A stretch of DNA of 64,000 nt from assembly GCA_950097015.1 (NCBI GenBank), contig CATNEN010000038.1, positions 10,230,001-10,294,000 of the forward strand, written 5' to 3'. Within the stretch, counting starts at the first letter, position 1; the number at the start of each line of letters is the position of its first letter. Origin of the DNA: Macrostomum hystrix (lineage: Eukaryota > Animalia > Platyhelminthes). Below, one piece after another: positions 32,301-37,495 of the stretch. The translations under genes were made by a program, and so were the position numbers. Below the pieces are notes generated by a model that was given only the letters and a program-made list of their open reading frames with translations, was not told where the DNA came from and did no database searches.

Positions 32301-35300
32301 TAGTTTTAGACCAAAGTGTAAGTGAGAGTGTACACTGGCTGACCAAGGTGTAAGTGAGAGTGTACACTGGCTGACCAAGGTGTAAGTGAGAGTGTACACT
32401 GGCTGACCAAGGTGTAAGTGAGAGTGTACACTGGCTGACCAAGGTGTAAGTGAGAGTGTACACTGGCTGACCAAGGTGTAAGTGAGAGTGTACACTGGCT
32501 GACCAGAGTGTAAGTGAGAGTGTACACTGGCTGGCCAAAGTGTAAGTGAGAGTGTACACTGGCTGACCAAAGTGTAAGTGAGAGTTTACACTGGCTGACG
32601 ATGAGAAAGTCTATGGCAGTGGAACAAAGTCAGCGGAATGAGCAAAACATGACTCAAATACTTAGACAATGAGCGTTGATTTAGGAGGTAAGAATTTATA
32701 ACAAAAAAATAACAATAAGTGCTCACTTGAGCTGCACTTTGGCCTTCTCAATCAGCTTCTGCATGTCAACCTGGCAGCGCCTGATCACCTCAACCTCCTG
32801 CATGGGGGATGGCGGCAGTGAGTTGACATAAAAATTACATAAAGAAATCGCCACTTTCAGAAACTGGAGCTTCTCCCAGCGACTCACCTTGATGAGCTGT
32901 CGCTCCACATTGTCGTGCACCTGGTCGATGCCGATTCTTTTTTCGCGGTTCATCAGGCACTCCTCAGAAATCTGCAGCGGCTTAGCCGTATGCTGCAGCG
33001 CGTTCTCCAGTACCCGCAAGTGCTCCTAAACAATGAAGGTTGAGCATAGTTGGCTGAGCACAGCCTGTTTGACAGCGGCGTGGGATTCTCTCAGGATCTG
33101 TTTCAGATATCTAGGGAATCCGGAAGACTGCGATTTTGAGGATTTTGAGGAAATCCTTCGAGGGATTTCCTCAAATCCGTGGGTCCTGTGGGAAATCCAC
33201 TAGATGTAAATTATGCTTCTATTTTTAGATTGTATATCAAGAGATAGGCATACTACAAAATGAGCAAACTGTGTATATTTTTGGGAAATTCCATTGAATA
33301 AGCATTAATTTCTGGGAATCCTTACATGTACAATGATTTTAACGATTTTTACAATGTTTTAATTTGATTTTAATAAAATTGAAGGGAATCCCTCCTGATC
33401 AGTGTCTAATTCTGAGAATTCCTTGCAATCCGTGTGTACTCTGGGGAATCCCCTCCAATCCATGTGTACTCTGGGGAATCCCTTGCAATCCGCATGTGCA
33501 CTGGGTAATCCCTGGAAATCCGCGTGTACTCTACGGAATCCCCTAAAATCTACGTGTACTCTGGGGAATCCCCTGCAATCCATGTGTACTCTGGGGAATC
33601 CCTTGCAATCCGCATGTGCACTGGGGAATCCCTGGAAATCCGCGTGTACTCTACGGAATCCCCTAAAATCTACGTGTACTCTGGGGAATCCCCTGCAATC
33701 CATGTGTACTCTGGGGAATCCCTTGCAATCCGCATGTGCACTGGGGAATCCCTGGAAATCCGCGTGTACTCTACGGAATCCCCTAAAATCTACGTGTACT
33801 CTGGGGAATCCCCTGCAATCCATGTGTACTCTGGGGAATCCCTTGCAATCCGCATGTGCACTGGGGAATCCCTGGCAATCCGTGAGTACTCTGGGGAATC
33901 CCATACGATCTGAGCGTAGTGAGGGGAATCCCTTTCAGTCGACGCTAATATCTTCATCGTGTTAGGAAAATAATGTTTTTAAGTAAGCGTAATTTTGGTG
34001 AGATTACGTTAAATAAGTGAATAAGAACAAAATTTTTTCACAACAAAAAATCTGAACATCTAGAAAGCAGAAGTGCAAATTAATATCATTTAATTTAGGC
34101 TATGCTCAAGCTTCAATACCTCCAAGGAGTACATGGACTCAAGCTGCTTCTTGCCTTCGTCCGTTAGGCATTCGGCCCACATCTGGATGTCTGAGTAACG
34201 CTCCCCTGCAGCCGAGGCGGCAAACACGGGTGGCGGTTAGTTAGCGGTGTACTTTTAGACTGCAGCCCAGCTCAGACGTTGGTGCTTAAGAATAAATATC
34301 GGTTATAAAAGCTTGCTACTCACAGTAGATTAAGATTCAGCACGAAAACGAAAAAAAAATTAATTTCAGGAGTTTAGAGAATTTATAGTTTTTTTCATTC
34401 TGATTTTCATTTTCTGTCAGTTCTTGTGTTTTCAATTATGTTTCCATACTTTCCATCCATGTTTCCATACTTTCCATCCATGTTTCCATACTTTCCATCC
34501 ATGTTTCCATACTTTCCATACATGTTTCCATACTTTCCATCTGTGTTTCCATAATTTCCATCTGTGTTTCCATACTTTACATCTGTGTTTCCATAATTTC
34601 CACCCGTGTTGCCATACTTTCCACCCATTTTTCCATTACTTTCCACTTTTTTTCCATACTTTCCATCCATGTTTTCATTGCTTAACATATAAGTTTCCAT
34701 ACTTTCCATCCAAGTTTCCATACCTTCCATCCATGTTTTCATTGCTTTCCATCCAAGTTTTCATTGCTTTCCATCCAAGTTTCCATACTTTGCATCCAAG
34801 TTTCCATACTTTCCATCCAAGATTCCATACTTTCCATTTAAGTTTCCATACTTTCCATTTAAGTTTCCATTGCTTTCCATCCAAGTTTCCATACTTTCCA
34901 TCCAAGTTTCCATACTTTCCATCCAAGTTTCCATACTTTCCATCCAAGTTTCCATACTTTCCATCCATGTTTTCATTGCTTTCCATCCAAGTTTCCATAC
35001 TTTCCATCCAAGTTTCCATACTTTCCATCCAAGTTTCCATACTTTCCATCCAAGTTTCCATACTTTCCATCCATGTTTTCATTGCTTTCCATCCAAGTTT
35101 CCATACTTTCCATCCAAGTTTCCTTACTTTCCATCCAAGTTTCCATACTTTCCATCCAAGTTTCCATACTTTCCATCCAAGTTTCCATACTTTCCATCCA
35201 AGTTTCCATACTTTCCATCCATGTTTTCATTGCTTTCCATCCAAGTTTCCATACTTTCCATCCATGTTTCCATACTTTCCATCCAAGTTTCCATACTTTC

Positions 35301-37495
35301 CATCCATGTTTTCATTGCTTTCCATCCATGTTTCCATACTTTGCAGCTAAGTTTCTATTATTTTCCATCTATTTTCTAAATTATTCTTCGTTTTCTAAAC
35401 CTTATTATTTCGGCAGCAGTTTTCATATATTTTAAACATTTTCATCCCGCAGTTTGCTCAGAAGTGCAGCCCAATAATTCTTGGGTTTAATTGAGACAAG
35501 TCTACAAATGCCGAGTCGAGAGAATACTAGACACACAAGGTTAGATATATTACGCCATGCACTCTCTTATACTACTCATATGCTACTCATTACCGCGAGA
35601 TTCTCGCTCTCATTGTGATTCAGTCCGGCCTCCTTTTGTAGCTCGCGCCGCCAGAATTGAATGTCTTCAACGCGCTCGTCTGGCAAACCGCGAGCGAGCA
35701 GATTTTCATAATTGCATGATATCGGTAATGCTTAACAGGCCTGAAAACGCTTTGTTCTCCAGTGTCTATGGTATTAAGTGCAATTGTAAACAAAAATGAA
35801 CCTACATTTTAGGAATGGAGCACTTTATTAACTATTATCTACCATCTTATAAAGTACATGATCATCATCCCTATGACAGTCATGACCATCACGTACGTTA
35901 CCCCCGTTGTCTATGACCTTCATCTGTCATTCAATGATTATGATCTCGCGCTGATGATCATAATCTCTAGCTCAAAGACCATTATCTTTCGCTCTATGAC
36001 CCTCATATCTCTTACTATGACCATCATCTTTCACTCTATGACCATCATCTTTCACTCTATGACCATCATCTACGTCCGTCATTTCTCACTATATGACAGT
36101 CATGTCTCATTCTATGACCGTCATATCTCACTCAATGACAGTCATATCTTACTCAATGACAGTCATATCTCACTCTATGACAGTCATGTCTCACTCTATG
36201 ACAGTCATGTCTCACTCTATGACATTCATGTCTCACTCTATGACAGTCATGTCTCACTCTATGACAGTCATGTCTCACTCTATGACAGTCATGTCTCACT
36301 CTATGACAGTCATGTCTCACTGTATGACCGTCATGTCTCACTCTATGACAGTCATGTCTCACTGTATGACAGTCATGTCTCACTGTATGACCGTCATGTC
36401 TCACTGTATGACCGTCATGTCTCACTCTATGACCATTGGCTCCCGCAGTCCTCTCCCTGTCATCCCAGCTCTCACTGAGCCTCTTGGAGGCGTCGCTCTG
36501 CCTGGCCTTGGTCCGCTGGTCGGTGATTTTGACGGTCCGCCAGGCCTCAGCCCGCAGTCGCTCGGCTTCGGCTCGCTCCTTCTCCGAGACGCCGAAGTTG
36601 GCCTTGTTGCTGTTCTTCCAGTCGTCTGTGCTGAACCTGGCGTAGACGGCGTTCCTGAATGGGAGATTTGAAAGACTGTGAGATTCGACAGACTATAAGA
36701 TTCGACACATACTGAGATTCGTCAGACCATGAAATTCGTTGTACCATGAGATTCGTCAGACAATGAGATTCGCCAGACCATGAGATTCGACAGACCATGA
36801 GATTCGACAGACTATAAGATTCGACAGACTATGAGATTCGACAGACAATGAGATTCGTCCGACTATGAGATTCGACAGACTATGAGATTCAGTAAACTAT
36901 CAGATTTTGACAGACTATGAGATTCGACAGATTATAAGATTCGACACATTATGAGATTCGACAGACTATAAGATTCGTCAGACCATGAGATTCAACACAT
37001 TATGAGATTCGACAGACTATAAGATTCGTCAGACCATGAGATTCGACAGACTATGAAATTCGACAGACTATGAGATTCGTCAGACCATGAGATTCGTCCG
37101 ACCATGAGATTCGTCAGACCATGAGATTCGTCAGACCATGAGATTCGTCAGACCATGAGATTCGACACATTATGAGATTCGACAGACTATAAGATTCGTC
37201 AGACCATGAGATTCGACAGACTATGAAATTCGACAGACTATGAGATTCGTCAGACCATGAGATTCGTCAGACCATGAGATTCGTCAGACCATGAGATTCT
37301 TCAGAACATTCACCTGGCCGGGTTATAGAAGTTCTGCGCATGCGACACTCCGGGCGGCAGTGTGTAGGATCTCGACAGTCGGTTGCCGACGGTCTCCTGG
37401 GCGATCGGCGGCAGCGCTCTGGACAAGCTGGGCGTCAGCGGTGTCGCTGTCCTCGGAGTCCTCGCAGTTCTCGGAGCCAGCTGTGAGCAGCTCAT
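29362..37495 (-). CDS. TEKT3: Tektin (Tektin-3/5 class), 9 coding exons with alternative exon 3, ~476 aa
   Basis: Exons 37495-37314, 36675-36476, [35679-35594 or 34205-34120], 33025-32888, 32797-32727, 32091-31948, 31871-31649, 30711-30557, 29593-29362. Motifs: [71 protein letters not shown]. Exact 3-versus-5 orthology and the first exon are less certain. Confidence 0.92.
29630..30377. repeat. 52-bp minisatellite (~14 copies)
   Basis: (gggactgttgaatgtacgcagtcggtcagaagggagacaggggttgagagaa)n in tektin intron 8. Confidence 0.96.
32310..32598. repeat. 32-bp SINE-derived minisatellite (~9 copies)
   Basis: (ccaaggtgtaagtgagagtgtacactggctga)n continuing into SINE A sequence cgatgagaaagtc. Confidence 0.95.
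33415..33935. repeat. 30-bp minisatellite with 120-bp higher-order repeat
   Basis: Four distinct ..gggaatccc.. monomers recur in fixed order. Confidence 0.93.
34120..34205 (-). CDS. Tektin alternative exon 3b (divergent paralogue of 3a)
   Basis: gctgcag|GG GAG CGT TAC...TTG GAG|gtattg; 86 nt, phase 1 to 0, open; encodes (R)[28 protein letters not shown]. Confidence 0.75.
34438..35342. repeat. 20/21-bp minisatellite between tektin exons 3a and 3b
   Basis: (tttccatactttccatccaag)n. Confidence 0.95.
35594..35679 (-). CDS. Tektin alternative exon 3a (canonical-like)
   Basis: ttgccag|AC GAG CGC GTT...CTC GCG|gtaatg; 86 nt, phase 1 to 0; encodes (N)[28 protein letters not shown]. Confidence 0.88.
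35990..36435. repeat. 21-bp minisatellite
   Basis: (ctcactctatgacagtcatgt)n. Confidence 0.93.
36676..37300. repeat. 17-bp minisatellite filling tektin intron 1
   Basis: (gagattcgacagactat)n. Confidence 0.95.

Follow-up and report, generated by a model that had tools for sequence, protein, structure and literature searches.

Duplicated copies of exon 3 as likely mutually exclusive cassettes in a tektin-3/5B gene of Macrostomum hystrix

Does a single tektin gene of the flatworm Macrostomum hystrix encode two filament proteins by exchanging one exon for another? The question arises in a window of 64,000 nucleotides (contig CATNEN010000038.1, positions 10,230,001 to 10,294,000; coordinates below are those of the window). 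Judged by its sequence, the gene concerned is a Macrostomum-like tektin-3/5B. In a tree from which the exon-3 columns were left out, the gene grouped with the reference 3/5B proteins XP_013079790.1 and XP_012945184.1, apart from 3/5A, with a UFBoot value of 100. Its protein can be aligned gap-free with P0001 of M. lignano, a homologue that matches the Pfam Tektin family (PF03148, E 6e-129) and is modeled as a four-helix rod, 1A-1B-2A-2B (helices 70-176, 188-246, 271-377, and 389-452). The gene model lies on the minus strand and begins with coding exon 1 (37314..37495; ATG at 37495, aligned with P0001) and exon 2 (36476..36654; 179 nt, phase 1 at its end). Beyond exon 3, it continues through exon 4 (32888..33025; 138 nt, phase 0), exon 5 (32727..32797), exon 6 (31948..32091; residues 219-267), exon 7 (31649..31871), exon 8 (30557..30711), and exon 9 with the stop codon (29362..29593). 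Exon 6 is single copy here, and a check of exons 2 to 9 detected no duplicated exon beyond the two copies of exon 3.

The two copies, 3a (35594..35679, residues 121-149) and the diverged alternative 3b (34120..34205), proved to be as the earlier note had described them: both are minus-strand, 86 nt long, AG/GT-flanked, and stop-free, run from phase 1 to phase 0, and have the translations given. They share exon 2 upstream and exon 4 downstream and are separated by a minisatellite with about 44 copies of a 21-nt unit (34440..35369). Either 3a alone or 3b alone yields a 469-amino-acid protein; including both places a stop at codon 163, and including neither places one at codon 135. Transcripts with both exons or neither would stop early and be expected to undergo nonsense-mediated decay. 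Because 1,388 nt lie between the copies, we ruled out steric exclusion of splicing between 3a and 3b. Two overlapping CTAAC motifs, 39 and 35 nt upstream of the 3b acceptor (34236..34244, minus strand), resemble the branch-point consensus, and we take them to be a candidate branch point.

Exons 3a and 3b share 9 of 28 residues and are identical at 34 of 86 bases. When 36,642 stop-free 28-codon windows were scanned with a profile of 74 distinct homologous segments, from which the window and the P0001-P0006 rows were left out, 3a ranked first (37.3 bits) and 3b second (-5.3 bits), with the next candidate at -25.3 bits. None of 100,000 shuffles of 3b reached its profile score, which together with the first two ranks indicates that the resemblance is not due to chance. 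An HMM scan detected 3b weakly (E 0.35), and a Pfam search of 3b gave no match. The gap-free alignment proposed for the pair may not be the historical one: if the alignment is moved by one codon behind the tryptophan, with compensation further on, the identical bases in that stretch of 17 codons increase from 14 to 24, a match equalled by 34 of 2000 codon shuffles.

Splicing was followed in four spliced-looking sequence runs of unrecorded kind, all from one study and chosen for containing the 3b stretch; junctions were read from run contigs over two stretches with one exon (3a or 3b) each. Both 3a junctions were present in all four runs. We detected the exon 2-3b junction in one of the four (X1) and the 3b-exon 4 junction in two (X3 and X4), in each case at the exact predicted site. 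The loose ends of 3a or 3b consisted of exon 2 and exon 4 letters only, with the last 30 nt of exon 2 and the first bases of exon 4 joined to both copies. The X1 contig joins exon 2 to 3b and then reads on into the intron, the X3 and X4 contigs extend from upstream intron sequence across 3b to exon 4, and the X2 contig has 3b unspliced on both sides. Every spliced 3b contig keeps one flanking intron. Since contigs of unspliced intron also flank 3a in the same runs, partial splicing seems to be common in them. Contig depths were 3-9 for those bearing 3b, 5-8 for intron, and 51-112 for 3a, a measure that cannot rank parts of a gene. The earlier note had proposed looking for the four junctions of 3a and 3b, and all four were seen in contigs. 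Exon 2, 3b, and exon 4 on one molecule were not seen; no contig of the four runs carries both 3b junctions, and such contigs show presence rather than absence, their simplification losing rare junctions.

The donor region of 3b and the acceptor region of exon 4 form a predicted duplex of -26 kcal/mol (z -4.6; 0 of 1000 shuffles), with z values of -1.3 to +0.7 for the other 11 donor-acceptor pairs. A selector-like element covering +5 to +23 relative to the 3b donor (34097..34115, minus strand; inverted repeat I4, 15/16 complementary) pairs with a docking-like site present twice upstream of the exon 4 acceptor on the same strand, as copy 1 (33053..33066; -24.3 kcal/mol) and copy 2 (33034..33049, -24 to -9 of the acceptor; -21.1 kcal/mol). 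This partner was the best among 2,676 pre-mRNA windows for the 3b element. A selector for the same docking site at 3a did not rise above chance (z +0.56), so the classical model of competing selectors fails, with a selector at 3b and none at 3a. A candidate second element upstream of 3b, at about 34250-34295, was rejected, as 16 of 200 shuffles matched it. We consider the predicted stem likely to be real. Linking the sequence just after 3b with that just before exon 4, it would govern the joining of 3b to exon 4, the likeliest way being to draw donor and acceptor together, and we judge the chances that it activates rather than masks to be about even.

Protein records, rather than genomes, were the source for swaps outside Macrostomum. 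Same-gene RefSeq isoforms swap exactly the exon-3 segment in seven of eight ribbon-worm and mollusc sets with at least two records each. The swap is limited to residues 125-149 in Lineus, Mytilus trossulus, M. edulis/galloprovincialis, Physella, Babylonia, Littorina, and Biomphalaria, with four versions of the segment in Lineus; Aplysia X1 and X2 showed no swap there. The Lineus records are XP_064634138-43, and those of Mytilus include XP_063398075-78. In the sister gene tektin-3/5A, a different exon, the block homologous to exon 6, is swapped in 4 of 4 species and is predicted to lie on the helix neighboring the one swapped in 3/5B; XP_025104496/503 and CAH1794446/7 are such 3/5A pairs. In this flatworm, as in ribbon worms, mussels, and snails, one gene probably yields several versions of tektin. 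The claim of mutually exclusive paralogous exons is supported by the frame logic, by the presence in spliced contigs of the two 3b junctions, and by the swap in other phyla. The cross-phylum cluster and the intronic stem both lie beyond what the earlier note had reported.

Exons 3a and 3b are copies of a single tektin-3/5B exon that was duplicated, and each is joined to the same exons on either side. We think it probable that they serve as mutually exclusive cassettes, and we expect with comparable assurance that 3b makes a working protein. The selection said to be implied for 3b is supported, as past selection, by codon-position, column, and neutral-decay tests. Identity by codon position is 12, 14, and 8 of 28, five of the nine shared residues have different codons, and shared residues fall in conserved columns (p 0.009). 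Among neutral decays of 3a, 1 of 20,000 kept the frame, the splice sites, and the 9 identical residues, a test that speaks to past and not present selection and so also suits a 3b that was once functional and is now decaying, with splice sites used at a low level, a protein that is unstable or unneeded, and a cluster that is real elsewhere in spiralians. The profile score of 3b falls below that of every natural variant (lowest of the 74 segments, 22.2 bits; median, 79), as decay would have it, and 3b departs at the K131, E133, M141-type, and E144 columns, lacking in the gap-free reading both E133 and E144, which are invariant in 74 of 74 segments. However, 3b has both glutamates one position ahead, which is where a compensated codon shift would put them, and it retains its length, frame, splice sites, branch-point motif, codon bias (GC3 22/28, similar to 0.79 for the whole CDS), and hydrophobic positions 124, 127, 129, 130, 134, 145, and 148; the strong intronic stem, moreover, is at 3b alone. 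Decay would also fit the lack of a 3b orthologue in a word search (0 of 12 candidates) and in a HMMER search of 1.84 billion representatives, whose one match was the repeat protein P0125, but these blanks are weak because protein searches cluster isoforms away. The M. lignano records (n=5) are all of the 3a type or partial 3a type. That the 3b junctions occur in partly spliced contigs only is likewise compatible with decay, which we regard as distinctly unlikely. Those same contigs could mean that 3b is not a cassette but a last exon, with a stop nine codons into the intron, or belongs to an internal first exon that is joined to exon 4, the products then being truncated or regulatory: these are the only forms that they show (the X1 run-on; X3 and X4 from the upstream intron), and the stem, which overlaps the 3b donor from +5 on as well as the acceptor region of exon 4, could mask both. 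Yet 3a is also found with unspliced introns, rare junctions are lost from simplified contigs, only a cassette requires the exact match in length and phase, and other phyla have full-length swapped proteins, all of which makes this reading very improbable.

The exon cluster is real and probably ancient; it would be older than the flatworm-nemertean split, with copies gained and lost since. In an exon tree built on 28 columns, where 1 of 20 branches is starred, 3a and Lineus X1 come together (95/89), and AU tests of groups picked after the first tree had been seen rejected the Lineus copies as one clade (p 0.007), gave p 0.039 for the Mytilus copies as one clade, and did not reject the flatworm exons as one clade (p 0.19). 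These rejections in Lineus and Mytilus of lineage-only origins count against an origin of the flatworm pair separate from that of the nemertean and mollusc clusters, through repeated duplication of an easily duplicated exon and with no ancestral cluster, an account that nevertheless gains from the result for the flatworm exons. It would also suit 3b, which has a branch of 2.8 changes per site and cannot be placed in the tree, and whose shifted alignment resembles 3a, as for a Macrostomum-only copy, and the recent-looking identity of Lineus X3 and X4 (25 of 28) and of pulmonate pairs (24-25 of 28). It fits poorly with 3a itself, which is identical to Lineus X1 at 16 of 28 residues and to the other Lineus copies at 12-13, and with the exon of another flatworm, Cichlidogyrus, which is nearer to the mollusc type than to 3a although the rest of its protein groups with Macrostomum at 100. 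On balance, an independent origin appears somewhat unlikely.

With 3a and 3b as alternative cassettes of one gene, the products would be two 469-residue tektins differing solely in a 29-residue stretch, the common one from 3a and one of restricted use from 3b. The modeled helix boundaries of the M. lignano homologue, together with Foldseek matches to TEKT3 chains, predict that this stretch is midway along helix 1A. The closest solved relatives are mammalian TEKT3 and TEKT5 (PDB 7rro, 8otz; E 1e-111 by sequence, TM 0.78 by fold). In the filament geometry of PMC8595878, the swapped helix would sit next to the L12 loop, packed against the end of 1B and the beginning of 2A, in the region of the head-to-tail monomer joint. 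A swap at that position would adjust how stable the filament is or which partners it chooses in some cilia. As for the suggested two subunits with different coiled-coil surfaces, tektins are three-helix bundles and not intermediate-filament-like coiled coils (PMC8595878). A role for 3b in sperm, also suggested, is weak in this genus; Macrostomum sperm are aflagellate (bioRxiv 10.1101/2021.03.28.437366), and we therefore set a sperm-flagellum role aside. More tentatively, the sister genes 3/5A and 3/5B may each have had their own cluster (exon 6 and exon 3) since early spiralians, on neighboring antiparallel helices at the head-to-tail filament joint, so that splicing would act as a cell-type code inside ciliary microtubules, each gene offering as many as four versions, with Macrostomum 3b being an extreme, RNA-stem-gated member.

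Tektin diversity for building different cilia has so far meant gene number (PMC6357514), and swappable exons would be a layer that gene counts miss. The swaps are visible in automatic annotations of three phyla, apparently unremarked. As the earlier note had suspected, we found no published description of a tektin exon swap, including in the accessible text of PMC5368703, PMC9803972, PMC11834534, and PMC4759005. Because length and register are kept, the isoforms could co-assemble in one filament. Whether different cilia use different tektin surfaces is a directly testable question.

The gene resembles the 3/5B of Bastin and Schneider (2019; PMC6357514) in falling in the clade of their Biomphalaria and Aplysia references; that survey of spiralian tektin-3/5A and 3/5B was by gene count only, with no occurrence of "isoform," "splic," or "exon" in its main text as accessible. 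The four-helix rod is shared with the mammalian TEKT3/TEKT5 filaments of doublet microtubules (PMC8595878, PDB 7rro, 8otz), and mammals vary their tektin bundles by paralogue, exon swaps being unmentioned in the accessible text of PMC8595878. As in the downstream docking-site/selector pairing of 14-3-3zeta, Mhc, and MRP1 (PMC6071210), the sequence just 3' of an alternative exon complements a site that precedes the constant exon downstream; unlike in those genes, the selector is at 3b only, with none at 3a, and the docking-like site is double and on the acceptor region itself. The principle of mutually exclusive splicing is already known, with tandem exon clusters in Drosophila Dscam1, Mhc, 14-3-3zeta, and MRP (PMC6071210). 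Like those clusters, the tektin exons are homologous, equal in length and phase, and likely used singly, a wrong combination puts the reading frame out, and copy number differs between lineages. Unlike them, the host here is a ciliary filament protein, and two sister tektin genes each carry a cluster at a different exon.

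Two 86-nt segments of the minus strand, exon 3a (35594..35679) and exon 3b (34120..34205), were each preceded by AG, followed by GT and open in the same frame, as the earlier note had described. They agree at 9 of 28 amino acid positions and at 34 of 86 nucleotides, and are separated by a 21-nt minisatellite. Most long introns in the window contain their own minisatellite (61 minisatellite rows), including those on either side of 3a and 3b. Our nine-exon gene model runs from an ATG at 37495 to a stop at 29362 and encodes 469 residues with 3a or with 3b. Inclusion of both copies between exon 2 (36476..36654) and exon 4 (32888..33025) resulted in a stop at codon 163 and omission of both in a stop at codon 135, bearing out the proposal that exactly one must be used. 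A possible acceptor for a non-coding first exon is the AG located 26 nt upstream of the start codon (37521-37523, minus strand); isoforms in molluscs show N-terminal differences too.

When scored with a profile built from 74 distinct homologous segments (rows of the window and protein records P0001-P0006 excluded), 3a came first and 3b second among the 36,642 stop-free windows of the six reading frames. The two were also the top two of 46 minus-strand AG-86-GT candidates and the sole two between exons 2 and 4, and none of 100,000 shuffles of 3b reached its score. HMM methods detect 3b poorly (E 0.35, with no Pfam match), so this exon can escape notice. Elsewhere in the window, 14561-14725 on the minus strand is an R-SNARE gene exon (Pfam Synaptobrevin, E 8e-12), which may resemble Ykt6.

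Exon 2 matches a tektin of Macrostomum lignano at 93% identity, which points to a related Macrostomum species as the likely source of the window. In a tree built without the exon-3 columns, the window protein formed one group (UFBoot 100) with XP_013079790.1 and XP_012945184.1, which are named as Biomphalaria and Aplysia tektin-3/5B in the supplement of Bastin and Schneider (PMC6357514). Three Lottia tektin-3/5B entries in that supplement have accession numbers close together (XP_009048507, 510, 516). The modeled M. lignano homologue (mean pLDDT 84.5) matches mammalian TEKT3 chains and has helices at 70-176, 188-246, 271-377, and 389-452, with exon 3 (residues 121-149) in the middle of helix 1A by these limits.

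The 3b stretch was present in four sequencing runs (X1-X4) of one study, of unrecorded kind, which we treated as RNA because their contigs were spliced. For 3a, loose contig ends matched the exon 2 end and the exon 4 start in all four runs. For 3b, a run X1 contig joined exon 2 to 34205 and then continued into the next intron, runs X3 and X4 joined 34120 to exon 4 with the upstream intron retained, and run X2 was unspliced. Thus, each 3b splice site is used, and with its correct partner, but no contig contained the complete cassette. Unspliced intron contigs flank 3a as well, indicating that incompletely processed transcripts are frequent in these data. No loose contig end in the four runs showed a 3a-3b junction, although contigs are unable to prove its absence.

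Among the records listed, with one 51-member cluster represented by 15 members, same-gene tektin-3/5B isoforms differed only inside residues 125-149, with the rest of the rod identical, in seven of eight sets (Lineus longissimus, Mytilus trossulus, M. edulis/galloprovincialis, Physella, Babylonia, Littorina, and Biomphalaria glabrata); Aplysia X1 and X2 lacked this swap. Lineus has four versions of the block (P0007, P0073, P0075, and P0077), two of them 25/28 identical, and in Lineus and Mytilus the swapped block stops where exon 3 of the window does, at residue 149. Since same-gene isoforms on one assembly need different genomic segments, we read these protein records as alternative exons. 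RefSeq isoforms are usually supported by RNA reads. An exon tree (28 columns and 23 segments, built without 3b and one duplicate row) grouped 3a with Lineus X1 (95/89). AU tests, on groups picked after an earlier tree had been seen, rejected a single-lineage origin for Lineus (p 0.007) and Mytilus (p 0.039) and did not reject flatworm monophyly (p 0.19). From these sequence comparisons, the exon-3 cluster probably predates these phyla, with later gains.

In the sister gene tektin-3/5A, same-length isoform pairs from Pomacea, Babylonia, Gigantopelta, and the annelid Owenia (P0024/P0109, P0021/P0128, P0028/P0130, and P0026/P0146) had identical exon-3 blocks and differed only within residues 220-266, the exon 6 block, in all four sets. 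By sequence, this is a second, separate swap, homologous to window 31948-32091, where tektin-3/5B exon 6 is single, with no second copy found. Biomphalaria "nucleoside transporter" records (the cluster of P0035, with P0113, P0116, P0118, P0119, and P0122) grouped with tektin-3/5A through one record of 1009 aa that is probably a gene-model fusion. From helix limits rather than coordinates, residues 121-149 would lie antiparallel to 215-243 (176+188 = 364), and invariant charged residues pair by this sum (R123/D242, E133/D231 or K235, and E144/R222). In tektin filaments, the L12 loop is described as a clamp on the following monomer's L2 loop (Gui et al., PMC8595878). This clamp and the antiparallel register suggest that the exon 3 and exon 6 clusters would both affect the same joint region.

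Present function of 3b is counted against by its profile score, far under all 74 natural segments, and by the replacement in ungapped alignment of E133 and E144, both invariant in 74/74 segments. Both glutamates occur one position early in 3b, and a compensated one-codon shift fits its DNA to 3a better than the ungapped alignment (p about 0.02); the hydrophobic stripe, in contrast, agrees with the register without gaps. No 3b orthologue was found by word search of candidates or HMMER protein search. Other observations favor past selection on 3b. Neutral decay of 3a to the same divergence kept frame and splice sites in 160 of 20,000 trials, and one also kept nine residues, in a test using substitutions without indels, assigning all change to 3b, and conditional on 3b having been found. 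Residues shared by 3a and 3b lie in conserved columns (0.82 versus 0.66, p 0.009) and use different codons at five of nine, with identity by codon position of 12, 14, and 8 of 28. GC3 of 3b is 22/28 (whole CDS, 0.79), and branch-point-like motifs accompany 3b and not 3a.

Together, our results support a real and likely ancient mutually exclusive exon cluster in the tektin gene family, whose swapped isoforms are already present, unremarked, in RefSeq. Among the matches listed in literature searches on tektin splicing and exon duplication, which covered mostly the article texts of non-subscription papers, we found no tektin with mutually exclusive exons. As Macrostomum sperm are described as aflagellate (bioRxiv 10.1101/2021.03.28.437366), somatic cilia are the likelier site of use.

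A repeat scan identified 15 of 16 complementary bases between positions +5 to +20 of the 3b donor and -24 to -9 of the exon 4 acceptor. The duplex reached -26 kcal/mol (z -4.6, 0/1000 shuffles), with z from -1.3 to +0.7 for the other 11 donor-acceptor pairs tested; one non-cognate pair of 81 reaches similar raw energy. The target of the 3b element has two copies and is its best partner among 2,676 pre-mRNA windows. This single intronic stem may gate 3b, and wrong exon combinations would be cleared by nonsense-mediated decay. Unlike downstream docking-site systems, in which docking sites and selectors are the RNA-pairing elements, 3a here lacks a selector, and we therefore did not class the stem as a docking-site/selector system; the layout of the 3b-exon 4 pairing is nonetheless like that described for such systems (PMC6071210).
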